Assembly (NCBI GenBank): GCA_023898465.1
Contig: CP060223.1
Coordinates: 704,001-768,000 of the forward strand
Direction of reading: 5' to 3'
DNA from: Candidatus Nomurabacteria bacterium
GTDB taxonomy: Bacteria > Patescibacteriota > Patescibacteriia > HK-STAS-PATE-3
Length of the DNA stretch: 64,000 bases
In this document: positions 20,535 to 63,540 of the stretch, piece by piece
Layout: each line of letters starts with the position of its first letter
Numbering within the stretch: position 1 is the first letter of the stretch
Made by a program: the position numbers and the translations under genes
Notes under the pieces: model-generated
Told to the model about the DNA's origin: nothing
Database searches by the model: none
Seen by the model: only the letters and a program-made list of their open reading frames with translations

Positions 20535-21047
20535 GTGACAGATGCACCTCATCCCCATTCAGAATCCCCAGATGATCCTCACTTCTGGATCAAGTTCTAC
20601 CCCCACCTCTCAGGCGCAGTCCAGTCTGTCTTGGAGCGAGTCTACCAACTCGGTCTGCCGCAACACCCAGGCATCATCCACGTTCTGTTCGTACACCGTG
20701 GTCAAGACCAGCCTCAGATCACCACGTTTCCAGGGCGGCGCCAAATCGATCTTCGGGTCGGCATGACCCTTCCGCCTTGTCGGGACGCTTTGAAGTCCGA
20801 CCCAGACAGGAAGTGGGCTACCAACATGTGGGACGGCGACCCCGAAGGCAAAATCGGTGCCGCAGCTCTCCGCATCACTCCGGCTGGCCACATCCTCGGT
20901 ATCGTAGGCGAGCATCTGATTCTTGAACACGCGCTGGCCATTCTCTACCTGGCGCTGGCTCGCAGCGGCTTGATCAGCGCTGACGAACTGACCAAGCTCG
21001 AAGTCGACGGCAACCTTACCTACATGGTCTTGCGCGCTCGTGACTAG
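20535..21047 (+). CDS. hypothetical protein (170 aa), paralog A
   Basis: High-GC ORF; C-terminal ILGIVGEH..LAILYLALARSGLISADE aligns with IIGCIGKN..LTVLLTGMKNAGIIDAE of the next gene. Confidence 0.5.
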   Translation: MTDAPHPHSESPDDPHFWIKFYPHLSGAVQSVLERVYQLGLPQHPGIIHVLFVHRGQDQPQITTFPGRRQIDLRVGMTLPPCRDALKSDPDRKWATNMWDGDPEGKIGAAALRITPAGHILGIVGEHLILEHALAILYLALARSGLISADELTKLEVDGNLTYMVLRARD

Positions 21048-21096: not shown

Positions 21097-21212
21097 TCCT
21101 CGACGGACTTCGTATATGTAATAAATTGACACCTGCACTACAAGCGCTATACTGCGACCACACTTTTTGCACCTTCCTACAAACCGCGCCTGAAGAAACC
21201 AAGGAGTACCGG

Positions 21213-21719
21213 ATGAAATCTGAAGGAAGCGCTGGTCTTTGGCGGCAACTTACTCCGGAGCTGCACAAGGCTATCGCGAGTATTCACATCTATGCTGAGG
21301 ATCGTGATAGCAGCGGACCTAAGCCTGAAGCATGCCTTCTTGGACTGTCCATAGATGGCACCGTAGTGTACGCTCATGCCTGGCCACCCCGTGGTCCCAT
21401 CTCGCCGAACATGACTACGCACCTCAATACTCTGTGCGCCGTCCTGGCAAGGCGTCGCAGTAAAGGTTTCGCAATCGAAGCGGTTGACGACCGCATCGAT
21501 GCCTACACCGTGGCCGCTGCAGTGCGCATCGCTGGCACCAGCATGATCATCGGCTGCATCGGCAAGAACTTCTATCCCGAGGGTGGGCTGACTGTCCTCC
21601 TCACCGGAATGAAGAACGCGGGGATCATCGATGCGGAGACAGCAAGTCAAATCGCCACACAAGCGAAGTGCCGCTGGTACTACGAGATCAACGAGCTTCC
21701 AATCCCGCGAAGGATATAG
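21213..21719 (+). CDS. hypothetical protein (168 aa), paralog B
   Basis: Start MKSEGS has AAGGAG 6 nt upstream; distant paralog of 20535..21047. Confidence 0.5.
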   Translation: MKSEGSAGLWRQLTPELHKAIASIHIYAEDRDSSGPKPEACLLGLSIDGTVVYAHAWPPRGPISPNMTTHLNTLCAVLARRRSKGFAIEAVDDRIDAYTVAAAVRIAGTSMIIGCIGKNFYPEGGLTVLLTGMKNAGIIDAETASQIATQAKCRWYYEINELPIPRRI

Positions 21720-24584: not shown

Positions 24585-24760
24585 AGTGTTTCTAGTATAT
24601 AGAGAAAAGTCGCTCGGTGGAAGATGTGGGAAAAGAAAAAGCAGCTCTCGCATACACGAAAGCTGCTTGTAGTTGACGCCGGACGAGCAAATGCTAGTCT
24701 GGCCTTGGGGAAGCAGGAAGACCTAGGGCCGCAAAACCATTGGTCTCCTCCTTCTCTTTG

Positions 24761-26041
24761 CTACGAAGTAATCACTGCACCAAGCTGCAGACAATCGGTC
24801 GCACCATGCACGCTGCGATCCTGCCGAGCCGTCACCACAATGTCGGCAACTTCACGACCAGCAAAATGCACTGTCACCCGGGTGAACCACTCAGCACTCT
24901 GGCAAGCACCCGTGTCAGTGAAGTACTCAAAGCGCCGTGCACGATTCTGCACTTCTCGCTGCAACACCGCCCGACCCCGCGCCTTGACCGCCTTTGCCAA
25001 AGCTGCCGAGAAACGCGCATCACTGCTGAAGATGGTTCCTTTCATGCCGCTGGAAATTGACTCCTTCAGCACGAAATTCCCATCAGCACACAAGGCCTGC
25101 CAATACTCCGGTCGCTTGCTTTTGTCGACCAAGTAGGTCGGCGGGATGAAAGCGCGGATGCACTGGAGCGCTTCCGAGGAAATGAAAGCATGCAACATTG
25201 CCTCAAGCTGAGGATCAGCTTCATCATTCCGCAAGATGGCCATGACCGCCTTTGAGCCCAGGAAGGGCTTTGGTGGGAAAAGGAAGTCGAGGCGTCCACA
25301 CTCATACCCTTCACACAAAACCTGATTGAGCGCTTGGTTTTTGTACATGAAGGGAAAATCGAGTAAGGGTGCCAGCGACAAAGCATCGAGCAAGTGCGAT
25401 GTGTCGCCCGTACAGACAGCATCCAACTCGCTCATGAGCTGAAGATCGATACCAAGTCCCTTCAATTCATCCTGCAGGATGAGGAACTCCGGCCGATAGA
25501 AACGCTCTTGGTCTGCATAGAGTAAGATGGCCTGGTTCGTGCCCTTCGCCCGGATTGCTTCAGCCACTTTGACTGCCGCGCCCGGGAAACTCGCGTGGCC
25601 ATTCTGTGAAAGACGTCGTGTACGGGCTGCCAAGGTTGAGTAGCCGAGTCCATGTTTGTTGTGACCATCGATCTCAGCTATCCAGAGTCGCCCACTCGGA
25701 TCTTCCATGAAATCCACCTTGCACACTGCTGGTACTCGACCAGGCTCGCGCAGTTGAATCTCGTGATAGGCCGGCGGCACCCCGGTCTGTGACACACGCT
25801 TCAACATCCCCCAAGTTTTACCATGCACCAACTTGGGTTGTGCCGATGTCGCGACCATGCGCCCGATCCCAGACATACAGTCATACAGAGCCGGCGCCAA
25901 GGCTCGCAGATCTTCGGCCTGTTGAGCAGTCAACTCCAGCACACTGGGCGACAACACGAAACCATGCTGCCGACGAGACCCGTTCGTCCAGATACCAGAA
26001 GCTTCTACTACCTCCAGCACCTCTTGATACGATGGAGACAT
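24761..26041 (-). CDS. hypothetical enzyme, possibly a (circularly permuted) ATP-grasp-like ligase
   Basis: Start MSPSYQEV has AGGAGG upstream; FVLKESISSGMKGTIF resembles the ATP-grasp K-x-GS-G-x-G strand and an E-x-D/N-like motif (WIAEIDGHNKHG) lies N-terminal to it, i.e. reverse of the canonical order; fold assignment is weak. Confidence 0.4.
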   Translation of the reverse strand: MSPSYQEVLEVVEASGIWTNGSRRQHGFVLSPSVLELTAQQAEDLRALAPALYDCMSGIGRMVATSAQPKLVHGKTWGMLKRVSQTGVPPAYHEIQLREPGRVPAVCKVDFMEDPSGRLWIAEIDGHNKHGLGYSTLAARTRRLSQNGHASFPGAAVKVAEAIRAKGTNQAILLYADQERFYRPEFLILQDELKGLGIDLQLMSELDAVCTGDTSHLLDALSLAPLLDFPFMYKNQALNQVLCEGYECGRLDFLFPPKPFLGSKAVMAILRNDEADPQLEAMLHAFISSEALQCIRAFIPPTYLVDKSKRPEYWQALCADGNFVLKESISSGMKGTIFSSDARFSAALAKAVKARGRAVLQREVQNRARRFEYFTDTGACQSAEWFTRVTVHFAGREVADIVVTARQDRSVHGATDCLQLGAVITS

Positions 26042-26081
26042 CTTCTCCTCCTTTGCTTCGTAGCGAATTGTGAATGAACAC

Positions 26082-26516
26082 CTAGGGCAGAATTTCGAGT
26101 ATGTCCTGCAACCTAGAGACAGTGAAGGTGGGTTGTTCTTCGGCACTACGAGGAAGTTCAGAGGCGAACTTTCCTTGTCGCACCCACACTGTCTGCAGAC
26201 CGAGACGATTTCCTAGCGCGATTTCTTTGCGCACCCGATCACCAATCACGAAACTATTTCCTATGGCACACCCTTTCACGATGCGCTGAAGCTCGCGTTG
26301 ACTCTTCCTCCGCGAAACAACTATTTCTGAGAAAAAGGAAGCCAAACCCAGTGAACGAATAAGCTCAGTCCGAGTCGGGATAGCTCGACTGAAAAGCGCT
26401 AAAGTATAGCGACGCTGTAGTCTTGCAAGTACTTCAAGGGCACCAGGCACCAAGGCGCCTTGCGCGGGATCGTACAAAGTACGATTGAAATCAAAAACGA
26501 TAACGTGTTGAGACAT
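26082..26516 (-). CDS. HAD-like hydrolase
   Basis: N-terminal hhhhDxx motif (VIVFDFNRT) and C-terminal GDRxxKE motif; 144 aa. Confidence 0.5.
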   Translation of the reverse strand: MSQHVIVFDFNRTLYDPAQGALVPGALEVLARLQRRYTLALFSRAIPTRTELIRSLGLASFFSEIVVSRRKSQRELQRIVKGCAIGNSFVIGDRVRKEIALGNRLGLQTVWVRQGKFASELPRSAEEQPTFTVSRLQDILEILP

Positions 26517-26718
26517 ACAAAAACACCGACCCTCGCGGGTCAGCTGTGATGAACGTTACTTGAGTAAAAAACTACTTACACGTCAACAGCAACTGTGCCG
26601 CGAGGCCAGCTTTGCTAAACCAGAAATAATGGTTGTGCTGTTGAAGATTGTTCATTGCTGCCTAGTCTAACTGAGTAAATGGTCCTGTCAAGCCCTAAAG
26701 GAAAAGACGGCTCACTGC

Positions 26719-27162
26719 TTAGGCAGAAAGCCGTCGTTTGAAATCACTACGCCACTGATCCACTCGCCAGGTCCACTGCAAGTAAGGACCAAAGAGAAAG
26801 TAGCTCAGACGCTCAGTCACCAACCACGGCCCCCAATAGCAGAGCACATGGAGTGGGTGTGCATAGATTGCATAGCGCCGTAGAGTCTTCACGGCCCCCT
26901 CATCAAGCCAAAGCAAGATCCAAAGCGCTATCCAGCAAGGAAGAAAGAGATAGAAACAGCAAACTGTTTTCCACTCTATCAAGCCCTGAGCAACTTCAGC
27001 GAAGCTTTGCTTCTTCCCGGTGAGGAGATCAAGTAGCATTCCAAGCATCACCAACCACATCATCAGCGCGAGACTACCAAGGTACGCCCAAGCAAAGGGC
27101 TGACATCGTCTCATGCGACGTCGCCAGAGCAATGAGCGGATGCTCACCACTTTTCCAGACAT
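26719..27162 (-). CDS. Trp-rich membrane protein, hypothetical
   Basis: Multiple TM segments; terminator hairpin GACGGCT..AGCCGTC overlaps the stop. Confidence 0.4.
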   Translation of the reverse strand: MSGKVVSIRSLLWRRRMRRCQPFAWAYLGSLALMMWLVMLGMLLDLLTGKKQSFAEVAQGLIEWKTVCCFYLFLPCWIALWILLWLDEGAVKTLRRYAIYAHPLHVLCYWGPWLVTERLSYFLFGPYLQWTWRVDQWRSDFKRRLSA

Positions 27163-27283
27163 CTACCCTCCTTGCTATCGACATCAAATGAAAGAACAAG
27201 CTAGACTCTATTTTTCATTCTCTTGTCGTTATCGTCAATCCCTCTTTTCATTTTTGCCGACTCATGGCTATACTGACCTCGCT

Positions 27284-27730
27284 ATGCCAACACTCGCCGT
27301 CAACAAATCTGTGGGCTTCAGCTTCGAAATTCAAGAGAAATTCGAGGCTGGTATTGCATTGTCTGGCCCAGAGGTAAAGGCGGCCAAGCAAGGCAACATC
27401 AGCTTGAAAGGAAGCTACATCACTATCCGGCCTGATGGCGCTTGGCTCATTGGCTGCTATATCTCCCCTTATAAGCCGGCGCAAGCTACCCAGCAAGGCT
27501 ATACCCCGACCCGAGATCGCCACCTCTTACTCCGTCAGAGCGAACTCAGCCGATTAGTGGGTGCTGCCAGCGCAAAAGGCTTGACAGTACTGCCTATTTC
27601 CTTTTATACTAAAGGAGGCTTGATAAAGGTTGAAGTCGCTATTGCTAAAGGCAAAAAAAAGGCAGACAAGCGGGAAAGCATTAAAAAACGTGATATTGAG
27701 CGGCGCATCCGCCAATCAGTCCATCACTAA
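27284..27730 (+). CDS. smpB: SsrA-binding protein SmpB
   Basis: Aligns along its length with SmpB (FEAGIALSGPEVKAAKQGNISLKGSYI...KGKKKADKRE); TATACT box 10 nt upstream of ATG. Confidence 0.85.
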   Translation: MPTLAVNKSVGFSFEIQEKFEAGIALSGPEVKAAKQGNISLKGSYITIRPDGAWLIGCYISPYKPAQATQQGYTPTRDRHLLLRQSELSRLVGAASAKGLTVLPISFYTKGGLIKVEVAIAKGKKKADKRESIKKRDIERRIRQSVHH

Positions 27731-27778: not shown

Positions 27779-28180
27779 GGGGATGCCCAATAATCGATCG
27801 ATCGTTCACAATCTGTGCAGGCAAGCCGGTCACCCAGGTCTCCCGTAACAGGCCCTGGAAAAAGCAAGTGTCAATTCATTTGCCAGCAAGGTAAAGAACT
27901 CCATTGCTAACGCAATGCAGTCACTCCAACTTGCGCCAGTTGTCGCGTAAAAACCGATAACCATCTATGCTTACGATGTCCTGAGTTGTTCGCATGGGTG
28001 CTACACTTATCAGGATAGGAACCTACCTTGTCTCGGGTTTGTTCCGAACTATTGAGACTAGGAAATAAATGATTTCGTTCGTTTCATACATTTGTTTCTG
28101 AAGCATTAAAGCGAACTAGGCTTGTAGAATGTACACGATTGTACGATGAGACGCGGGCGTGATACCCGCCATCTCCACCA
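27779..28180 (+). ncRNA. ssrA: candidate tmRNA (ssrA)
   Basis: Directly downstream of smpB; 5' GGGGAUG pairs with 3' CAUCUCC-A-CCA giving a G3-U70 wobble; T-arm GCGGG/cgugaua/CCCGC precedes the acceptor 3' strand; candidate tag reading frame GCU AAC GCA AUG CAG UCA CUC CAA CUU GCG CCA GUU GUC GCG UAA (ANAMQSLQLAPVVA) at 27906..27950. Confidence 0.55.
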
Positions 28181-30648: not shown

Positions 30649-30726
30649 TGGCGGGCCCGACCGGATTCGAACCGGCGATCTTCTCCGTGACAGGGAGACG
30701 TGTTAACCGGGCTACACCACGAGCCC
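30649..30726 (-). tRNA. tRNA-Asp (anticodon GTC), CCA encoded
   Basis: Reverse complement GGGCTCGTGGTGTAGCCCGGTTAACACGTCTCCCTGTCACGGAGAAGATCGCCGGTTCGAATCCGGTCGGGCCCGCCA folds as a cloverleaf: 7-bp acceptor, anticodon loop CUGUCAC, T-loop TTCGAAT, discriminator G. Confidence 0.85.
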
Positions 30727-30953: not shown

Positions 30954-31139
30954 CTAGAGGTAGTGAGGCACGAAGAGAGGGCGTCGGCCGAAGTCAGGCC
31001 CTTTCCCTACGGGCTTAACAACCCGTCGTGTGAAACTCCTTCGATCTGTGTAGGTCGTCGCGATGCAGAGCTTATAACCCCGCTCCTCTGCGACCTGATC
31101 AGGATCGAAGTCAAAAACATCGACAGTGGACTTTGGCAT
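30954..31139 (-). CDS. small hypothetical protein (61 aa)
   Basis: GAGGAGG 5 nt upstream of ATG; high GC; shares the ..VD..D..E..Y...TTYT.R.. core with 31266..31619. Confidence 0.4.
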   Translation of the reverse strand: MPKSTVDVFDFDPDQVAEERGYKLCIATTYTDRRSFTRRVVKPVGKGPDFGRRPLFVPHYL

Positions 31140-31265
31140 GCAGACCTCCTCGGGTACTCAGCCTCTAGGGTTTGTACAAACTATTCCTCCTCTCACGCCT
31201 CCTCAAAAGAAGAAGTGAGAGGAGGAGAGCAAGTCAGTCGAAACTGCTTGCTCTCCAAAGAAAGA

Positions 31266-31619
31266 TCAACAGTGGTAGGTCTTCGGTCTCTGGCCTCCGA
31301 AAAGGCCGCGGTGCAGACCAGCGTCCGACCTCCTCGTCCTGCGCGGATTCAACCCGTCCTTGGGCGTACATCCGCGAGAAGTGTAGGTCGTCTGTCTCTG
31401 TGCGCCACCTACCCATGGAGCGTAGTTGACGCCGAGGTCGAGCTTCTCCCGAACCGAGAGGCTCGAGAGATCAACAGGACCGATTTGAGGATCGGATTTC
31501 GATTCCGGAGTGAAGTGATCCGTGACCTTCAGCCACGAACCATTCCCTTCTATCCGAACTGACCCTGGACGCGCGTGAATTCTACACATGCCTTCCCCCA
31601 TCTGCTTGCACTGATCCAT
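31266..31619 (-). CDS. hypothetical protein (up to 117 aa; true start uncertain), paralog of 30954..31139
   Basis: C-terminal 60 aa align to the 61-aa neighbour (PVDLSSLSVREKLDLGVNYA..TTYTSRG vs TVDVFDFDPDQVAEERGYKL..TTYTDRR); DNA-level imperfect repeat (CAACCCGTC..GTGTAGGTCGTC). Confidence 0.35.
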   Translation of the reverse strand: MDQCKQMGEGMCRIHARPGSVRIEGNGSWLKVTDHFTPESKSDPQIGPVDLSSLSVREKLDLGVNYAPWVGGAQRQTTYTSRGCTPKDGLNPRRTRRSDAGLHRGLFGGQRPKTYHC

Positions 31620-31724
31620 CAGTGCATGTAAAGGTCCATCTCTACTCCCAACCCCTTCTCACATTCCTGTGAAATGGGATAGGGGTACTTTAGCGGAAGC
31701 GCCTGCTTCTCGCAAGAATCAGCC

Positions 31725-31808
31725 ACCTCCCCTGGACACTCCTCCTCAATGAGGATTGCCCGGGGGAGGCCACGTACACCGATGCATAAGCCTCCGGTGG
31801 ACGTGGCT
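31725..31808 (-). promoter_or_regulatory. structured leader element C, copy 1 (two hairpins, core GUGUCCAGGGGAG)
   Basis: Read on the minus strand: CACGUCCACC..CGGUGUACGUG hairpin followed by CCCCGGG..CCUC..GAGG..GUGUCCAGGGGAG; homologous to 32602..32674. Confidence 0.55.
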
Positions 31809-32577
31809 AAAACAGTGAGTGGTACCAGGACCAAAGCTCAGCGCCCTTGAACAGAGCGAGAACTGCTGCTGGTGCCAGTAAAGAACCAAATGGAAGAGCT
31901 GCCGAGCTGCTCGCCCTGCCGAAGCGGATCAAGCTCAAGCCCAAGATACTACCAGCAGTAGACGCTAGCAGTACGGCAGCCAAGAAAGCAGCTGGACCAA
32001 GAAAGGCTCCAAGCATGAAAGCTAGCTTCACATCACCAAGCCCCATTCCTACCTGCCCACTTGCCTTCTTATAGAACCAGCCGATCAGGTAGAAACTTAC
32101 TCCTCCAGCCGCAGAGCCAGTGAGAGCTGGTACCAGGCCAATAGTCCAAGGTGAGAGCATCAATCCAAGTACAACTCCTCCCAAGCTGATTTCGTCGGGA
32201 ATGATCCGCTCGCGCCAATCCGTGAAGAAGACAACGAGCAGACCAAAGAAAAACAGCCAGGCGGAAAACCTCGGTATCATGTCAGGAATGGCAACGTAGA
32301 CCAGCAGGGCCAAGCCACCACCCAGCAGTTCAACCACAGGGTAGTGAAGCGAGATTGCTGACCGACAGTAGGCGCAACGCCCACGCAAAGCAATCCAGCT
32401 CAAGACTGGAACGAGATGCCAGGATCGAAGACGTCGACCACAGCATGGCGCGTATGACCTTGGCGTGCATACGCTCTCCCTAGGAGGGAGGCGATGAATG
32501 CACACATTAGCGAAACTGCCGAGCAAAGTGCCAACCATGAACACGAAGCTCGCAATCAGATACACACTTCCGTACAT
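31807..32577 (-). CDS. pilD: type IV prepilin peptidase (A24 family; PilD/ComC-like)
   Basis: N-terminal CxxC..CxxC zinc region (CTPRSYAPCCG..CAYCRSAI), polytopic A24 core; GGAGG 4 nt upstream of ATG. Confidence 0.8.
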   Translation of the reverse strand: MYGSVYLIASFVFMVGTLLGSFANVCIHRLPPRESVCTPRSYAPCCGRRLRSWHLVPVLSWIALRGRCAYCRSAISLHYPVVELLGGGLALLVYVAIPDMIPRFSAWLFFFGLLVVFFTDWRERIIPDEISLGGVVLGLMLSPWTIGLVPALTGSAAGGVSFYLIGWFYKKASGQVGMGLGDVKLAFMLGAFLGPAAFLAAVLLASTAGSILGLSLIRFGRASSSAALPFGSLLAPAAVLALFKGAELWSWYHSLF

Positions 32578-32601
32578 GTCTCCTCCCTGAGTTTGTATTC
32601 T

Positions 32602-32674
32602 CCCCTGGACACCCCTCTTGAGAGGTACCCGGGGAAGATCACGTCCACCGAAGCTTCATGCAAGGGTGGACGTG
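32602..32674 (-). promoter_or_regulatory. structured leader element C, copy 2, ending 13 nt before the pilD SD
   Basis: Minus-strand reading CACGUCCACC cuugcaugaagcuucg GGUGGACGUG (10-bp perfect stem) then CCCCGGGUACCUCUCAAGAGGGGUGUCCAGGGGAGA; second-hairpin inner stem differs compensatorily from copy 1. Confidence 0.55.
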
Positions 32675-32686
32675 ATCGCTGAGCGC

Positions 32687-33097
32687 TTACTCGCGCTGCG
32701 GGGTCAGGACAAGGACGGACTCGCCATCCTTTCCATTGACCGTGATGCGATAGGAGGAGAAGAACTCGGCCGGATCGTAGTAGACCGCACCAGACTCCTT
32801 CCCAGCCTTGTCGTAGGACCCGACGTCGTAGACCGCCGTACCTCCGAAGGGATTCCGGATACTACGCCTGGCGTTCGCCACCCCAGCGATGGAATCCGGA
32901 TAGACTCCTCCGTTCGCTGTAGCCCAGTCATCGACCATGTCCTGCACTTCGTAGGCATTGGACTTGGCCGTCGACAGACGTGCCCTGTCCTGCAGCGCCA
33001 GGTAATTCGGGACGGCGATGAGCGCCAGGATCCCGATGATGACCACCACGATCATGAGCTCGATGAGGGTGAATCCCTCCTGATTCTTCCGAAGCAT
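32687..33097 (-). CDS. type IV pilin / pseudopilin (class III signal peptide)
   Basis: MLRKNQEG|FTLIELMIVVVIIGILALIA: Gly-1, Phe+1, Glu+5 prepilin signature; GAGGAGGAA SD upstream; ORF track extends to a TTG at 33163 but the ATG at about 33097 fits the leader-peptide length. Confidence 0.75.
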   Translation of the reverse strand: MLRKNQEGFTLIELMIVVVIIGILALIAVPNYLALQDRARLSTAKSNAYEVQDMVDDWATANGGVYPDSIAGVANARRSIRNPFGGTAVYDVGSYDKAGKESGAVYYDPAEFFSSYRITVNGKDGESVLVLTPQRE

Positions 33098-33149
33098 CAC
33101 TTCCTCCTCTCTGGCTTCACCGGCAGCCAGTTGCCGTTGTAGAGAATAT

Positions 33150-33235
33150 TTTTCTCTCCGCAATCCTTATTCCCTTCCTCCCCTTTCAAAAGGGGAGGCT
33201 AGGTGGGGTTAAGAACTCTGGAGAGAGGAGGAGGA
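33150..33235 (-). promoter_or_regulatory. structured leader element, family A/B, copy B1 (variant with CCUCCCC/GGGGAGG inner hairpin)
   Basis: Minus-strand reading CCUCCUCCUCUCUCCAGAG..[CCUCCCC uuuugaaa GGGGAGG]..UUGCGGAGAG about 50 nt upstream of the pilin SD; the 5' pyrimidine tract is complementary to the SD GAGAGGAGG. Confidence 0.55.
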
Positions 33236-33435
33236 CAACCAAGGCAGAAGTGACACAAGGTCACAACCGCGAAGATCGACCCTCCTCCATGTGCTAGTGA
33301 CGCCCGCATTCGCGCCAAAGTTGGCGGGTGAGCAGACGGCGGTGATGCGTCAATCCGCATCGAGCTCGCAGCGCCCGACGACGCTGCCACTCGTGCAAAA
33401 AGAGTTCCACATGATGGAAAAATGATATGACACCC

Positions 33436-33612
33436 TCCATCACTTGAACTCCTGATTACAGAAGCAATACGCGCTCCGCGCCATCCATGTTACCCCGCTC
33501 AAGAAGAGCAAGAGACAAAAGAAGGCGGTGAGTGGCCCGATCGGAGTGGTCAGCGCTCCGAGCATGCCAAGCGATAGCAGTTCAGCAGCCACTGCCTGAA
33601 AAAGATATCGCA
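33436..33612 (-). CDS. small membrane protein (58 aa), hypothetical
   Basis: ATG with AGGAGG 6 nt upstream; MRYLFQAVAAELLSLGMLGALTTPIGPLTAFFCLLLFLSGV...; overlaps the 3' end of 33582..34211 in another frame; <60 aa so not in ORF track. Confidence 0.3.
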
Positions 33613-34211
33613 TCCTTGCCTCCTAGGTTTCTGGTCCGATATGCACCGAACCAGACTACAACGTGACAGACCAGGCTGACGCCTGGATATACCAGAGCCG
33701 CGAAACCATCCGGCCAGGCAACAACACCTTGCAACGCATACGCCAGCACGCCCAAACTCCACGGCCACTGGCTCATGCGCTGAGTACGAGAGAAACTCAT
33801 CTTCGCTATAGGTACAAAGGAAGGGATCACCACCACCTGAGCGATGATGTTCTCTGCCTTTGGATTATGAGCAAGGGTTGCGTAACCCAGAGCTATCACA
33901 ACGCCAATTCCCATAGACATGTCCCACGCGTCGATCCTCGCAATCTGGCTGACTTGCTTCCACCCGAGCTTCACAATGTACGCAAGGGTGAAGAGCATGA
34001 TCAGGCTAATGCAGGCGACCTGCACATAGGTAAAGATGCGCGCGTAAAGTGACGTGAATTCCCGATAGGTAAGAAAATTCAACATCACCCACACAAACCA
34101 CATCCCGATGGTAACGGGATGCGGCACTTCGCCCTTGAAGATGGCTCGGAGATACGCGAAGTATGCTCCAGCCAAAGCCAAGGAAGCAAGAACCATACAT
34201 ACCGCTCCCAT
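33582..34211 (-). CDS. polytopic membrane protein, hypothetical (209 aa)
   Basis: Five to six predicted TM helices; no recognisable family. Confidence 0.45.
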   Translation of the reverse strand: MGAVCMVLASLALAGAYFAYLRAIFKGEVPHPVTIGMWFVWVMLNFLTYREFTSLYARIFTYVQVACISLIMLFTLAYIVKLGWKQVSQIARIDAWDMSMGIGVVIALGYATLAHNPKAENIIAQVVVIPSFVPIAKMSFSRTQRMSQWPWSLGVLAYALQGVVAWPDGFAALVYPGVSLVCHVVVWFGAYRTRNLGGKDAISFSGSGC

Positions 34212-34399
34212 GAATACCTCCAGCTAAACGTGTTTTCTTCCTCCCTTGAATAACTAAACTCAATTTAGTAACTCAAGGGAGGCTCCGTCCATGTAGGTGT
34301 GACATGGACGGAGCGGTACGGCCTTGAACCTTTCAAAAAAGGCGGCCGCCATCACTGCGCTGCGTATGTTTGGTGATGCAACGCTTTGTGACAAAGCTG

Positions 34400-34497
34400 T
34401 GGCAGATGCAGGATTCGAACCCAACGACTCGCGAAAGAGTCATCTGGTGAATCGGTTGTTAACCGACGGGACCACTCCCTGGTCACCAGCACCTGCC
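34400..34497 (-). ncRNA. aberrant tRNA-like element (98 nt)
   Basis: Reverse complement begins GGCAGGTG and ends GGGTTCGAATCCTGCATCTGCCA: perfect T-loop consensus, 7-8-bp acceptor helix, candidate anticodon arm UCGG-UUAACAA-CCGA, 26-nt variable arm with GACUC/GAGUC hairpin; T-stem and D-arm are poor; TATACT box 7 nt upstream of the 5' end. Confidence 0.3.
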
Positions 34498-34507
34498 AAT
34501 AAAGTAT

Positions 34508-34555
34508 ACACTCTCCGCAGTCCCGTACCTCACATGGTACGAGGCTCTGGAGAGA
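34508..34555 (-). promoter_or_regulatory. structured element, family A/B, copy A1 (variant with CGUACC/GGUACG inner hairpin), immediately upstream of the tRNA-like element
   Basis: CUCUCCAGAGCC[UCGUACC augugag GUACGGG]ACUGCGGAGAG on the minus strand. Confidence 0.5.
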
Positions 34556-34592
34556 TCCGGAGCAAGTAACGTGTACTTACTCCGGAGAGAAA
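34556..34592 (-). terminator. hairpin after the 139-aa gene (CTCCGGA..TCCGGAG 7-bp stem)
   Basis: Perfect 7-bp inverted repeat with 19-nt loop directly after the stop of 34595..35014. Confidence 0.35.
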
Positions 34593-34594
34593 GG

Positions 34595-35014
34595 TCACAT
34601 GACGCGACCGAGCCTCGATCGAAGTCGTCCGAGCTGCGGCACAGTGAGAAGATCGTTCCGATGCTGAGAGCGTCGTCTCTCTTCTTCTGCACGACACCTC
34701 TCGGTCTCGCGCTTCTGTCGCTTGTCCGCTTCAGTCTTCCGCCACGCTTCCAGCGCGTGACGGAGCGTGTGGAGGACGTCGTACGCATCCTCCGGACGAT
34801 GCGATGCGCAATGTGGCTCGACCACTCCGTGCGTCTGACCTCGATGCGGGCAATACGCCTGCTTCGGACTGCAGGCTTGGCCGCACTGACGACAGACCAG
34901 ACTAGCCTCTTCCGGGTTCGCCAAGATCTTTTCGACCTCGGCTTCAGTGAAAGACCTCGGGACCATGTAGGACCCGGACTCGCTGAGAACCATCATCGAG
35001 ATTGAGAATGACAT
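34595..35014 (-). CDS. hypothetical protein with Cys/His cluster (139 aa)
   Basis: GAGGAGG 6 nt upstream of ATG; CRQCGQACSPKQAYCPHRGQTHGVVEPHCASH plus Arg/Glu-rich C-terminus. Confidence 0.5.
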   Translation of the reverse strand: MSFSISMMVLSESGSYMVPRSFTEAEVEKILANPEEASLVCRQCGQACSPKQAYCPHRGQTHGVVEPHCASHRPEDAYDVLHTLRHALEAWRKTEADKRQKRETERCRAEEERRRSQHRNDLLTVPQLGRLRSRLGRVM

Positions 35015-62112: not shown

Positions 62113-63540
62113 TTATAAATCGAGCTTCTGTTGCGCTTCTGAAACGCCTGATTCCTCTTCCATTTTTGCTACAACCTCTGGATCAGCTGCTTGGAGTTGT
62201 TGTGACTTACCTCGTTGCAGGCGCTTCACCACTTCATTTACAATTTTCTGCATATCTACCACTTCCTGAATGCCGTTTTCCATATCACGGATGAGAATTG
62301 TTCCATCCATCATCTCTTTTTGGCCAAGAATCAGTGTATATTTTGCATTCACGCGATTGGCTGCTTCTAACTGAGGTTTAATGCCGTCTTTGCTTAAACT
62401 CTCAGCCACTCGGACGCCCTGAGCTGACAATTCGCCAAAAAGTTTAATGGAAAGTTTACGGGCTGGGTCACCTAATTGTGCCAAAAATACATCGGCATCT
62501 GGCAATGCTTGCGCTTGAACGCCTTGTTCATGCAATCGATTAATCAGACGCTCAATCCCGCAAGCCGCACCCACGGCTGGCGTGGCTCGTCCGCCAATTT
62601 GTTCAATTAGACCGTCATAACGACCGCCACCACCGAGCTCAATCACTCGATCATCCCCTTCTGAGAGAACTGGTAGGAACTCAAAAGCTGTTTTGGAGTA
62701 GTAATCCAATCCTCGTACAATTCGTGGATCAAGCGTATACGGAATTTCTAACTCATCAAGGTATTCCAGCACTGACACAAAGTGCTCCCGGCTTTCTGTA
62801 TTCAAGTGATCTACGGTTTGTGGCGCTGTTTCAGCTAGAGTGCGGCATCCTGTCTGTTTGCAGTCCAATAAGCGGAGGGGATTCTTTTGCATACGACGCA
62901 AACAGTCTTCACATAGCTCACTCTTGTGGGACTTATAGTAGTCCAATAAGGCTTTTTCATACGCTGCCCGACTTTCCTTATCACCTAAGCTGTTCATATG
63001 CACGTTCACCGGCACTTGCAAACGTCGAAACACCTCATAAGTCATCGAAATTATCTGAGCGTCAACAACAGGGTGCGCATCGCCGATCGCCTCAAAGCCA
63101 AATTGAAAAAACTGACGATAACGACCAGCCTGTGGCCTATCATGTCGAAAAAATGACTCAATATAAAAGACTTTTACCGGCTGCGGCTGATTTAACATCC
63201 CATGTTCAAGGTAGGCCCGAGCCACGCCAGCCGTCCCCTCAGGCCGTAAGGCTAGGGATTCGTTGCTACGGTCAGTGAAGGTGTACATTTCCTTTTCCAA
63301 TACATCAGTCTCTTTGCCGATAGTACGATTAAACAAAGCTGCTGGTTCCAGCACCGGGGTTTCAATCTGCTCATAACGATATTCCATTGCCACCTGACGC
63401 ACTGTTTCCTCAACTAAACGCCAATAACCCTGTTCACTCGGCAGAATGTCCTTCATACCACGAACGAGCGTTGGGGTTTTTGGCTGATTGCTTCGCTTCG
63501 GGGCTGCTTGTTCAGCTGTATCTTTTACTTCTTTGCTCAT
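62113..63540 (-). CDS. hisS: histidine--tRNA ligase
   Basis: Class II motifs (FRHDRPQAGRYRQFFQ; GGGRYDGL), C-terminal anticodon-binding domain. Confidence 0.9.
   Translation of the reverse strand: MSKEVKDTAEQAAPKRSNQPKTPTLVRGMKDILPSEQGYWRLVEETVRQVAMEYRYEQIETPVLEPAALFNRTIGKETDVLEKEMYTFTDRSNESLALRPEGTAGVARAYLEHGMLNQPQPVKVFYIESFFRHDRPQAGRYRQFFQFGFEAIGDAHPVVDAQIISMTYEVFRRLQVPVNVHMNSLGDKESRAAYEKALLDYYKSHKSELCEDCLRRMQKNPLRLLDCKQTGCRTLAETAPQTVDHLNTESREHFVSVLEYLDELEIPYTLDPRIVRGLDYYSKTAFEFLPVLSEGDDRVIELGGGGRYDGLIEQIGGRATPAVGAACGIERLINRLHEQGVQAQALPDADVFLAQLGDPARKLSIKLFGELSAQGVRVAESLSKDGIKPQLEAANRVNAKYTLILGQKEMMDGTILIRDMENGIQEVVDMQKIVNEVVKRLQRGKSQQLQAADPEVVAKMEEESGVSEAQQKLDL

Follow-up and report, generated by a model that had tools for sequence, protein, structure and literature searches.

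An operon of three parts, an attenuator responding to ribosome stalling at Trp and His codons, a HAD phosphatase and a circularly permuted ATP-grasp amide ligase, is probably encoded in a stretch of Patescibacteria DNA and conserved across these ultra-small bacteria. Patescibacteria (CPR) account for a large share of bacterial diversity, lack most biosynthesis, and retain many conserved genes of no known function. The window, i.e., the whole stretch that we analysed, comprises 64,000 nucleotides of a Candidatus Nomurabacteria genome and contains the following features, all on the minus strand and given in the direction of transcription.

26664..26691, minus strand: sigma-70-like promoter, with -35 TTGACA at 26691-26686, a 16-nt spacer, and -10 TAGACT at 26669-26664
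26572..26655, minus strand: leader ORF of 27 codons, MNNLQQHNHYFWFSKAGLAAQLLLTCK and stop, with the Trp codon at 26622-26620
26598..26610, minus strand: candidate antiterminator segment GCUGGCCUCGCGG, within the leader ORF, 12 nt past the Trp codon
26517..26544, minus strand: intrinsic-terminator-like hairpin GCUGACCC-GCGA-GGGUCGGU followed by GUUUUUGU, abutting the HAD ATG
26516-26082, minus strand: HAD ORF of 144 aa, including MSQHVIVFDFNRT and GDRVRKE
26042..26081, minus strand: intercistronic spacer of 40 nt, GTGTTCATTCACAATTCGCTACGAAGCAAAGGAGGAGAAG, with the Shine-Dalgarno sequence AAGGAGGAG a few nt 5' of the ATG
26041-24761, minus strand: ATP-grasp ORF of 426 aa (MSPSYQEV...)
24639..24668, minus strand: terminator-like hairpin of 13 pairs and its U-rich tail, past the ATP-grasp stop and ahead of the ArgRS start

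The gene layout of the original prediction, a HAD-like gene followed after 40 nt and a AAGGAGGAG Shine-Dalgarno sequence by a 426-aa ORF, stands in its coordinates, on the minus strand. The longest mechanical ORF of the ATP-grasp gene starts from a GTG at 26146 and has 461 aa; the gene caller of the source record gives 426 aa, and places the ArgRS start 176 nt past the ATP-grasp stop. The hairpin at 24639..24668 in this gap is likely to be the end of the transcription unit. The module had also been called high-GC, which holds in direction (0.539, with the window as a whole at 0.492; 92nd percentile among equal-sized windows) and is only mild in extent, the HAD gene alone being at 0.499.

A survey of the genomic context of homologs, proposed at the outset as a check, finds that in 46 of 53 related loci the gene directly upstream of the ATP-grasp gene, in the same orientation, is the HAD gene; four of the seven remaining loci are interrupted by a contig end. 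The pairing is not due to chance, and it extends to distant members of the family (P0186, P0250, P0215), which likewise have the HAD gene upstream. No third conserved enzyme gene was found among the loci, the best other neighbour being present in eight of them. Many of the other neighbours belong to translation: AspRS-ND (7 loci), ArgRS (6 and the window), class Ia aminoacyl-tRNA synthetases (aaRS; 5), HisRS (5), SmpB (5 and the window), and also S15, RF-1 and L31. In 8 of the 53 loci TrpRS is no more than 6 kb away, in 4 it is adjacent, and HisRS is directly downstream in five (L018, L019, L055-57), a Trp/His link that is suggestive only, since the loci are phylogenetically non-independent and other aaRS and SmpB are enriched too. 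In L059, a Trp_repressor-family gene adjoins the module; as it probably belongs to the scpAB operon, it was not counted as evidence.

The 426-aa protein is predicted to be a circularly permuted ATP-grasp ligase and to represent a new, as yet unnamed sequence family. Its AF2 model (pLDDT 93.9, pTM 0.93) has the three-domain α/β architecture of the ATP-grasp fold; the best Foldseek matches are eukaryotic glutathione synthetases (GS; E 1e-15 to 1e-11), followed by YgiC/YjfC, Mfla_0391, GspS and trypanothione synthetase. The original prediction had suggested a circularly permuted ATP-grasp or GSP-synthetase-like ligase and an AlphaFold model comparison to ATP-grasp structures; that comparison, with GS-type structures on top, upholds the identity, while the accompanying description of the fold call as weak is superseded by what is now a strong assignment through structure prediction and fold search. 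The reversed order of motifs noted at that time is likewise borne out: K108-V-D110 and E123-I-D125 are both N-terminal of FVLK326ESISSGMKGTIF, so that the E-x-D strand precedes the ATP-binding Lys and the Gly-rich loop. The R/K-x-D...E-x-N/D motifs, the two ATP-binding Lys and the Gly-rich loop show little or no variation among 50 homologs; in particular, D110, E123, K264, K326 and G332 are invariant, and conservation is 90% or more at D125, S330, K334 and G335. Assigning the active site via alignment, we predict that the acyl-phosphate/Mg site consists of K108-x-D110 and E123-x-D125, and the ATP site of K264, K326, the S330-S-G-M-K-G335 loop and L360-Q361. These motifs are in register with those of human GS (hhalign) and with mutagenesis-tested residues of the fungal enzyme Cp1B, in which the motif residues are needed for function (PMC12568646).

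Membership in the permuted ATP-grasp group is at the level of fold only, as no Pfam or NCBIfam model matches the window protein. The Pfam search that had been put forward as a check (CP_ATPgrasp, GSP_synth) would thus have failed: Pfam at E <= 1 finds no family in the window protein, the GSP_synth model matches neither it nor any of the 50 members, and at E <= 10 all 50 members yield just CP_ATPgrasp_2, in 4 of 50 and at a sub-threshold E of at least 0.076. NCBIfam and PADLOC scans of the 426-aa protein gave no match, phmmer and profile searches of PDB sequences produced only noise, and an exhaustive profile search, with 381 matches in total, found no bridge to any known family.

The 144-aa protein is, by its motifs, a predicted cap-less phosphohydrolase of the HAD superfamily that lacks the general acid Asp+2 (D-x-N). 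It has the Rossmannoid core, the motif I Asp (D9-F-N11-R-T13), the motif III Lys (K71) and the acidic residues of motif IV (G92-D93-x4-E98). D9, K71, D93 and E98 are kept across 43 orthologs; at position +2 of motif I, 86% of them have Asn, the others Phe or Met, and none has Asp. There is neither a C1 nor a C2 cap, residues 10-24 forming just a β-hairpin. In one distant branch of the family (P0187, P0177, P0207), an unrelated His_Phos_1 phosphatase, weakly resembling SixA and CobC, takes the place of the HAD protein, its gene abutting or overlapping the ATP-grasp gene. The phosphatase partner has therefore been swapped at least once for a non-homologous one. This replacement, together with the conservation of the pair, backs the earlier idea of a pathway served by a ligase and a phosphatase, of which the chemistry would be as set out below.

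The upstream leader-peptide attenuator, the most informative part of the locus, was overlooked in the original prediction. In the window, the promoter has 10 of 12 consensus matches, and its -10 element ends 8 nt before the leader ATG, so that the leader mRNA would be leaderless or nearly so. The Trp codon of the leader ORF is preceded by codons for His, Asn, His, Tyr and Phe. The hairpin at 26517..26544 is the putative attenuator terminator. The segment GCUGGCCUCGCGG is the complement of CCGCGAGGGUCGGU, the loop and 3' arm of this terminator, with which it is paired in the MFE fold of the window leader; the pairing is kept when a ribosome is masked at the Trp codon, and the terminator is restored when the ribosome is masked at the stop codon. 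The switch of the window itself is thus a thermodynamic, MFE-based prediction; its seg2:seg3 duplex is not significant against shuffles, and the covariance model built from Paceibacteria-type leaders misses this leader, which is a sequence variant. Rfam at gathering score found no T-box, Trp/His leader or riboswitch in the window, and nothing relevant was found at E <= 1 in the leaders of the window and of L035. The HisRS gene of the window (about 63538-62263) has no such leader.

Related loci give a fuller picture. A leader ORF of 15-39 codons is present at this position in 35 of the roughly 41 usable loci, and the distant loci L055-L059 have one as well; two loci (L055 and L005) have two leaders each, in tandem. 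The promoter has at least 9 of 12 matches in 29 of 35 loci, and in 24 of 35 there are 6-11 nt between the end of its -10 element and the leader ATG. When 39 leader peptides are aligned on their first Trp, the preceding residue is His, Tyr or Phe in 28, the one before that is Tyr, Phe or His in 28, and the following residue is Phe, His or Tyr in 30; these ORFs were chosen for containing Trp, so that the invariance of Trp itself is partly circular, and the flanking enrichment is not. In 24 of 35 loci, the Trp codon is placed at -8 to +4 nt relative to where hairpin 1 starts, and a terminator hairpin with a U-run is found 5-29 nt before the HAD start in 34 of 35, the distance in the remaining locus (L015) being 73 nt.

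Covariation supports these helices. Across an alignment of 18 relatives, pairing is 88% for the terminator together with hairpin 1, with 8 double-change pairs, matched in 0 of 500 shuffles; for the antiterminator helix between seg2 and seg3 it reaches 93.8%, and 6 of 8 pairs have compensatory changes, again with 0 of 500 shuffles doing as well; sliding the seg2:seg3 partners by 1-3 columns lowers the pairing to 21-51%. By duplex energies, seg2:seg3 beats the shuffles in 21 of 35 loci. Covariance model matches in 659 kb place the element only at this position, including in loci that were not used for training. We conclude from these alignments that the relatives have an intrinsic terminator and a mutually exclusive antiterminator helix. 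Two other tests were superseded by the duplex energies and covariation counts. With a stalled ribosome masked, the terminator stays intact in the MFE folds of 15 of the 24 loci in which it was detected automatically, so that the switch would have to be kinetic; and a longest-common-substring test of the twin hairpins, which is too insensitive, was significant in 8 of 35 loci. Our literature search found no report of attenuation in Patescibacteria or of a HAD/ATP-grasp system in CPR.

In the mechanism that we propose, a strong promoter would fire at, or just before, the leader ATG. With charged tRNA-Trp, tRNA-His or aromatic tRNAs in short supply, the ribosome would stall at the Tyr/His/Trp/Phe codons and cover the 5' arm of hairpin 1, leaving its 3' arm to pair with the 5' arm of the terminator; with this antiterminator formed, transcription would read through into the HAD and ATP-grasp genes. 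A ribosome that reaches the leader stop codon would instead cover the 3' arm of hairpin 1, whereupon the terminator would form and the operon would be off. The ATP-grasp enzyme, being of the GS/GspS/YgiC/Cp1B type, most likely converts a carboxylate to an acyl-phosphate, with ATP going to ADP, and joins it to an amine, and the HAD protein, which keeps its nucleophile and Mg/phosphate ligands, would dephosphorylate a substrate, product or intermediate of the same pathway. Two points sit less well with this scheme. The usual leaders carry runs of one codon, and a single Trp within a mixed aromatic/His cluster also fits a ligand-sensing arrest peptide; and induction of a ligase by an auxotroph during amino-acid shortage is somewhat awkward. 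Two other sensors were considered and rejected: a PNKP-like RNA repair system responding to cleaved tRNAs, for which the invariant Trp is unfitting and a nucleotidyl-transferase ligase is missing, and sensing of tRNA modification, as no single modification spans the Trp and His tRNAs.

As for the leader, we think it very improbable that there is no attenuator, the upstream hairpins being terminators of neighbouring genes and the small ORF spurious. Intrinsic terminators are frequent in intergenic DNA, and the terminators that survive masking of a ribosome at the Trp codon could be taken in the same sense; however, the element accompanies the module irrespective of which gene is upstream, has its own promoter, and keeps the start, stop and Trp codons of its ORF at fixed positions relative to the helices, and its cross-helix covaries. 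It is also quite improbable that the short ORF encodes a precursor peptide, RiPP-like or a carrier, that the ATP-grasp enzyme modifies, with the hairpin setting the ratio of precursor to enzyme, even though a conserved small ORF with an aromatic motif does adjoin the ATP-grasp gene and terminator hairpins are common after precursor genes in RiPP operons. Only the W/H/Y/F cluster is kept in this ORF, its termini, its C-terminal residue and its length (from 15 to 39 aa) being variable, and it lacks a conserved core of Asp, Glu, Lys, Ser or Thr; an apparent conservation of Glu-Pro downstream of the cluster tracks the RNA stem GAACCAG. Moreover, selection acts on the alternative RNA helix between ORF and terminator, which a precursor gene does not need, and the tandem leaders are as in tandem attenuators. 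A RiPP system of the graspetide type in particular was rejected, that type being defined by a precursor peptide whose conserved core holds Ser/Thr/Lys and Asp/Glu and by an ATP-grasp enzyme of the canonical, RimK-like kind.

The proteins themselves could be read in other ways. The ATP-grasp enzyme might modify a component of translation (a ribosomal protein, a factor, an aaRS or a tRNA), in analogy to RimK acting on S6 or to tubulin-tyrosine ligase, with the phosphatase aiding or reversing the modification and the attenuator coupling it to stalling. We consider this unlikely. The regulation would respond to ribosome stalling, translation genes turn up beside the module much more often than would be expected of single-copy genes, and the HAD protein has no cap, cap-less HADs typically acting on macromolecules or needing a partner protein. 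On the other hand, translation genes abound in CPR genomes, which makes this enrichment weak and confounded by phylogeny; small molecules or short peptides are the substrates of all the closest structural relatives (GS, GspS, YgiC, Cp1B); and none of the genes linked to the module is a conserved candidate for the target. An improbable scheme, suggested by the consistent loss of Asp+2 beside the retained D9, K71, D93 and E98, is phosphotransfer, in which the ATP-grasp enzyme phosphorylates Asp9 of the HAD protein or the His of His_Phos_1, or hands its partner an acyl-phosphate or phosphoramidate, and the partner carries or relays the phosphate. Loss of the general acid slows hydrolysis of phospho-Asp and suits substrates with good leaving groups; His_Phos_1, too, works via a covalent phospho-enzyme, and its likeness, if weak, is to SixA and CobC. 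Succinyl-CoA synthetase and PPDK have ATP-grasp domains that phosphorylate a catalytic His, but these precedents are canonical, whereas all characterised permuted relatives are amide ligases; furthermore, the two proteins are never fused, as a search for HAD/ATP-grasp fusions found none and the 170-aa N-terminal extensions of the longer members P0187 and P0207 are not HAD domains. Finally, the top Foldseek matches to eukaryotic GS and homoglutathione synthetase could be taken to mean that the 426-aa protein is a divergent synthetase of glutathione or a glutathione-like thiol, an identity that we find scarcely credible and reject for glutathione synthetase, as the substrate residues and the genomic context are wrong.

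Returning to the three-part operon, a conserved "hypothetical protein" becomes a defined family of permuted ATP-grasp ligases with a phosphatase partner and an attenuator. The attenuator, with its Trp/His/Tyr/Phe leader peptide, is of a classical type, is newly recognised ahead of this pair, and points to a response to amino-acid starvation. The leader is evidence for ribosome-mediated attenuation operating in CPR bacteria; it suggests aromatic amino acids, His and their phosphorylated derivatives as candidate substrates, and its regulatory signal is directly testable in reporters. A bolder reading, with a small chance of being right, is that we are looking at an undescribed answer of Patescibacteria, and specific to them, to shortage of Trp, His or aromatic amino acids, in which a leaderless attenuator governs a permuted ATP-grasp enzyme and a dedicated phosphatase with a covalent intermediate, be it the D-x-N HAD protein or His_Phos_1, whose joint chemistry has no characterised counterpart. 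Examples of such chemistry would be salvage or activation of host-derived Trp/His or their precursors, support of tRNA-Trp/tRNA-His charging, and a phosphorelay from ATP-grasp to Asp or His. If true, this would show how obligate episymbionts without amino-acid biosynthesis react to a failing host supply; if the chemistry were salvage or charging support, it would bear on how episymbionts sense and answer the nutrient supply of the host.

Compared to known systems, the ATP-grasp protein is structurally closest to eukaryotic glutathione and homoglutathione synthetases (Pfam GSH_synth_ATP, GSH_synthase), at a Foldseek E of 1e-15 and a TM of about 0.6. K-V-D-F-M corresponds to R-S-D-Y-M of GS, E-I-D to E-I-N, PPKPFLGSK to LAGTK, FVLKE...SSGMKG to FVLKPQREGGGNN, and ILQEEV to ILMEKI. 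The corresponding hhalign alignments with human GS as a single sequence (E 0.11) and of profile A3 with the vertebrate GS profile (E 0.17) are not significant, though their register agrees with the structures. In a low-confidence alignment, human R125, S149, S151, N216, Q220 and R267, which we take to be the γ-Glu-Cys/Gly-binding residues, align with K108, N128, H130, F181, E185 and P230. Unlike eukaryotic GS, the family thus has its substrate-binding residues replaced, a bacterial (CPR) host, and no link to γ-Glu-Cys synthesis. The E. coli peptide-spermidine ligases YgiC/YjfC and the synthetase domains of GspS and trypanothione synthetase (Pfam GSP_synth) are about 10-13% identical to the 426-aa protein; hhalign with E. 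coli YgiC covers only 61 N-terminal columns and is not significant (E 0.0034, probability 9.5%), in a register that agrees with the structures. Unlike in GspS and YgiC, there is neither an amidase domain nor a DUF1190 partner, the conserved neighbours being HAD or His_Phos_1, and the module is under the control of a leader-peptide attenuator. Cp1B of the fungal E-64 pathway (PDB 9cjn) belongs to a secondary-metabolite cluster, joins epoxysuccinate with an L-amino acid, and has no phosphatase partner. Similarity to the CP_ATPgrasp_1/2 proteins (e.g., Mfla_0391, PDB 3n6x) is below any threshold at the sequence level, and the α-E and transglutaminase-like partners with which those proteins occur are absent from the module.

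The HAD protein is best compared to the subfamily IA hydrolases CTE7, YjjG, YfnB and PH1655, of 210-240 aa, with which only its core of about 136 residues aligns; here, unlike in that group, the C1 cap is reduced to a β-hairpin and Asp+2 is Asn, and the family scores are all far under the cutoffs. For the leader element, which none of the Rfam leader families matches, the models are the E. coli trpL, hisL, pheL and pheST attenuators, with which it shares the layout of a short, putatively translated leader ORF whose candidate regulatory codons sit on the 5' side of hairpin 1. As in these attenuators, the stop codon comes soon past hairpin 1, the 1:2/3:4 and 2:3 helices are predicted to exclude each other, and a terminator with a U-run lies right before the first gene. 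Unlike in these models, there is one invariant Trp in a mix of Tyr, His and Phe in place of one codon repeated, the short ORF is (nearly) leaderless, and the controlled genes are not biosynthetic for those amino acids; aaRS genes, as in pheST, are sometimes under the control of the element.

The gene pair lies on the minus strand and agrees in its coordinates with the original prediction: an HAD gene, then a 40-nt spacer with a Shine-Dalgarno site (AAGGAGGAG) directly 5' of the ATG at 26041, and a 426-aa ORF. The leader-peptide attenuator upstream of the pair was missed in that prediction. The features of the module, all on the minus strand, are as follows.

26691-26664 (-): promoter TTGACA-16-TAGACT, in the 200 nt that precede the HAD gene
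26655-26572 (-): leader ORF of 27 codons, MNNLQQHNHYFWFSKAGLAAQLLLTCK, starting 8 nt past the -10 element
26544-26517 (-): terminator-like hairpin with U-run, ending at the HAD ATG
26516-26082 (-): HAD ORF, 144 aa, starting MSQHVIVFDFNRT and containing GDRVRKE
26041-24761 (-): ATP-grasp ORF, 426 aa, its ATG 40 nt past the end of the HAD ORF
24668-24639 (-): second terminator-like hairpin, past the ATP-grasp gene

A mechanical ORF list also offers a longer start for the second gene (461 aa from a GTG at 26146, with overlap into the HAD gene); the start that gives 426 aa is preferred because of the Shine-Dalgarno site there and because the gene caller of the source record, a Logan assembly, chose the same one. 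The description of the module as high-GC stands only in a mild form: GC content of the pair is above that of the window (0.539 and 0.492, respectively), at the 92nd percentile. Downstream of the pair are genes for IleRS, a GT4 glycosyltransferase and ArgRS; upstream are those for a small membrane protein, SmpB, tmRNA, IF3, L35 and L20. The tmRNA gene (27779-28180 (+), Rfam RF00023, 74 bits) immediately follows smpB (27113-27730 (+)), and the two are divergent from the module, just upstream; SmpB adjoins the module in five other loci too. Elsewhere in the window there are a tRNA gene (30652-30726 (-), RF00005, 64 bits) and, between IleRS and the glycosyltransferase on the opposite strand, two ORFs of 170 and 197 aa (20535-21047 (+) and 21126-21719 (+)) in a stretch of GC 0.53. 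The highest GC of the window (0.55-0.56) is at 31001-35000, where no rRNA or other Rfam family matches at gathering scores.

The 426-aa protein matches no Pfam, NCBIfam or PADLOC model, so that the suggested Pfam check gave no assignment, and it has no match among PDB sequences. Word-indexed search detects over 316 relatives, full-length (415-450 aa) and 42-52% identical, all unnamed or "hypothetical" and all from sources named as Patescibacteria lineages. The exact protein is absent among these homology-search matches, the best being 51% identical; the neighbouring HAD protein has a 100% identical database match, named "HAD family hydrolase" by NCBI. Exhaustive profile search of 1.84 billion representatives finds only 381 proteins at E <= 1e-3, none of them a bridge to a named family. 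In 50 aligned members many polar residues are invariant or nearly so, among them K108, D110, E123, D125, N128-K129-H130, E179-R180, K258, K264, K326, S330, G332, K334-G335, Q361, R388, R406, H412-G413 and D416.

The reversed motif order is borne out, with K-V-D...E-I-D at 108-125 located N-terminal to FVLK326-E-S-I-S-S-G-M-K-G. An AlphaFold2 model built from the 50-member alignment (pLDDT 93.9, pTM 0.93) retrieves by Foldseek, as top PDB matches, eukaryotic glutathione and homoglutathione synthetases (E 1e-15 to 1e-11, TM ~0.6), followed by YgiC/YjfC, Mfla_0391, GspS and trypanothione synthetase; all strong matches are of the circularly permuted type. The permuted ATP-grasp call, labelled weak when it was made, thus gains a structural basis: judging from the model, we assign the ATP-grasp fold with high confidence, and the protein is almost certainly a catalytically competent permuted ATP-grasp enzyme.

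Profile-profile comparison gives no significant similarity to human glutathione synthetase (GS; E 0.11), to the vertebrate GS profile (E 0.17) or to E. coli YgiC (E 0.0034 over 61 columns). The 201-column GS alignment, itself below significance, places PPKPFLGSK on LAGTK, with K264 matching GS K305; FVLKE..SSGMKG, in the same register, on FVLKPQREGGGNN, with K326 matching GS K364; and ILQEEV on ILMEKI. In Cp1B, R139, D141, E163 and N165 are needed for activity and have been assigned to acyl-phosphate formation (PMC12568646); the equivalents here are K108, D110, E123 and D125. That the 426-aa protein is a true glutathione synthetase would fit the top structural matches, but the GS residues for gamma-Glu-Cys binding have been replaced here, and we do not classify it as one for that reason. 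The protein is inside the permuted ATP-grasp fold class and outside every existing sequence family of that class.

The HAD protein has no cap; its phosphoryl and Mg site is intact and the general acid is missing. In the light of general HAD enzymology, such a protein may have a substrate with a good leaving group (acyl-phosphate, phosphoramidate or pyrophosphate), form a long-lived phospho-enzyme, or depend on a partner protein. Right after motif I, L14-Y15-D16-P17 (window 26477-26466) is conserved, with D16 and P17 invariant in 17 close orthologues and P17 present in 95% of 43 locus-derived orthologues. In two Berkelbacteria-like loci the ATP-grasp gene is followed, past a ComEA-like gene, by another small HAD paralogue (L034 7453-7881, L036 4768-5196), with motif I D-F-F-G/A-T, likewise without Asp+2. 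At L045 (4892-5899), where there is no leader, the HAD ORF runs upstream without a stop for ~190 residues that, by eye alone, resemble a LOG/lysine-decarboxylase-like (TIGR00725-type) domain; a fusion or a missed start may account for this.

Scanning a single genome from each species yielded 53 loci, all in MAGs and mostly labelled as Patescibacteria lineages; the few automatic labels of other kinds, e.g. "uncultured Gammaproteobacteria", are probably wrong. The genomic-context survey upholds the pairing: 46 of the 53 have the HAD gene immediately upstream in the same orientation; of the seven exceptions, four are truncated, and L040, L047 and L053 are truly without HAD. At L047, 540 nt of upstream DNA precede the ATP-grasp gene. 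Clustering of all flanking ORFs gave no third conserved partner in more than eight loci. Distant family members P0186, P0250 and P0215 (~25-28% identity) still have the HAD gene upstream. The branch of P0187, P0177 and P0207 has no HAD; there, a 175-aa His_Phos_1 protein gene abuts or overlaps the ATP-grasp 3' end and is followed by HisRS and an EamA transporter. With one phosphatase superfamily taking the place of another, there is good reason to assign a phosphatase step to the pathway of the ATP-grasp enzyme. P0187 and P0207 (L055 1155-1660, L057 350-900) also have an extra N-terminal region of ~170 residues, which is not HAD-like.

Of ~41 loci whose upstream DNA is usable, 35 have a leader ORF of 15-39 codons, with 55-95 nt from its end to the HAD start, or 129 nt in L015. 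Distant loci have it as well: L055, L056 (MQKKSVQAWHFYQLA), L057, L058 and L059, the last with tandem Trp-Trp. Two complete leader-attenuator units in tandem precede the module in L055 (~890-1150; MQLNLKKNWHYYKLA and MKTQVTNLYWHHYFPTGEGGIFVSK, each with its own terminator) and in L005 (5185-5313 and 5353-5475). A promoter with at least 9 of 12 consensus bases occurs in 29 of the 35 loci, and in 24 its -10 element ends 6-11 nt before the ATG, implying that the leader ORF is leaderless or nearly so. Among 39 leader peptides chosen for containing Trp and aligned on it, position -1 is His in 17, Tyr in 6 and Phe in 5; position -2 is Tyr in 17 and Phe in 8; position +1 is Phe or His in 14 each. In the window, the HisRS gene (62263-63538 (-)), almost without a gap after a signal-peptidase-like gene, is not preceded by a leader of this type.

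Hairpin 1 (segments 1:2) lies inside the leader ORF. In 24 of 35 loci it starts between -8 and +4 nt relative to the Trp codon, and in these the stop codon is 8-32 nt past it (~10 nt in the Paceibacteria type); the terminator (3:4) ends 5-29 nt before the HAD ATG, or 73 nt in L015. Because its arms are similar to those of the terminator, hairpin 1 can also pair through its 3' arm with the terminator 5' arm (2:3). In an alignment of 18 Paceibacteria-type leaders (A2), pairing is 88% for hairpin 1 and terminator, where 8 pairs show double changes, and 93.8% for the alternative helix, where 6 of 8 pairs are compensatory (16 cells); 0 of 500 shuffles equalled either, and for the alternative helix, controls with partners slid by 1-3 columns were 21-51% paired. 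Compared with shuffled sequences, the alternative duplex is the stronger one at 21 of 35 loci, and almost without exception where hairpin 1 is correctly located. The A2 covariance model finds the element at the module position only, in 659 kb, including loci on which it was not trained (L023, L027, L028, L040, L053, L055 and, twice, L005); the element has no Rfam match. In HAD-less L040 (3524-3638) and L053 (362-493) the element directly precedes the ATP-grasp gene, which makes the ligase the core regulated gene. The geometry is of the trp/his type, with regulatory codons at segment 1, the stop shortly past segment 2, and 2:3 competing with 3:4. Against the alternative of no attenuator at all stands this covariation, and a real attenuator is quite probable. 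The window and L006 leaders are a variant, in which a segment 12 nt past the Trp codon (26610-26598) pairs with the terminator loop and 3' arm in the MFE fold; in the window, this pairing persists when a ribosome is masked at the Trp codon, and masking at the stop codon restores the terminator, a switch predicted on thermodynamic grounds only.

The invariant Trp, with His next to it and Tyr/Phe on the flanks, spans precisely those 4-5 codons at which a stalled ribosome would mask segment 1 and leave segment 2 free. On the simplest reading the leader senses charged tRNA-Trp, tRNA-His and aromatic tRNAs, the rival being a ligand-sensing arrest peptide of TnaC/SpeFL type; we slightly favour Trp/His charging as the signal. 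At 8 of the 53 loci TrpRS (TIGR00233, above cutoff) is no more than 6 kb away, and at four it is adjacent (just upstream of the leader in L024, L028 and L052; 119 nt downstream in L046); by our estimate a single-copy gene would occur ~0.5 times in ~450 kb of flanks, assuming genomes of ~0.9 Mb. HisRS (TIGR00442) is directly downstream of ATP-grasp in L018 and L019, and follows His_Phos_1 in L055-57; the gene order at L018 is leader, HAD, ATP-grasp, HisRS, three ORFs (the last of them on the other strand), TrpRS, AspRS. This neighbourhood weakly provides independent backing for Trp/His sensing; ArgRS, AspRS, class Ia aaRS and SmpB are likewise over-represented near the module, and the loci are phylogenetically non-independent. 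In L059 a Trp_repressor-family gene (PF01371, 4895-5227 (-)) is divergent upstream of the leader-HAD-ATP-grasp unit; it apparently heads an scpA/scpB operon, which may make the link a coincidence.

We propose that ribosomes would stall in the leader when Trp, His or aromatic amino acids run short, which would favour the antiterminator and allow transcription of HAD and ATP-grasp, at times with HisRS or TrpRS. The ATP-grasp enzyme would activate a carboxylate as acyl-phosphate and ligate an amine to it, and the phosphatase would handle a phosphorylated substrate, product or intermediate. Such amide-ligase chemistry is moderately likely. Rival schemes have the enzyme modify a component of translation, pass phosphate in a relay to HAD/His_Phos, or take as substrate the leader peptide, the termini of which are not conserved in the 39 peptides.

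The function of the module is now directly testable. Its elements are of kinds already known: the permuted ATP-grasp fold class, the HAD superfamily and attenuation. A Trp/His leader-peptide attenuator of Patescibacteria was not found in the searchable literature. What is new is a compact permuted ATP-grasp sequence family associated with Patescibacteria, which current profile libraries fail to detect; the near-obligatory partnership of this family with either a cap-less D-x-N HAD or His_Phos_1; a leaderless Trp/His leader-peptide attenuator, conserved and covarying, that lies outside Rfam; and, weakly, from neighbourhood, a recurrent link of the module to trpS and hisS.
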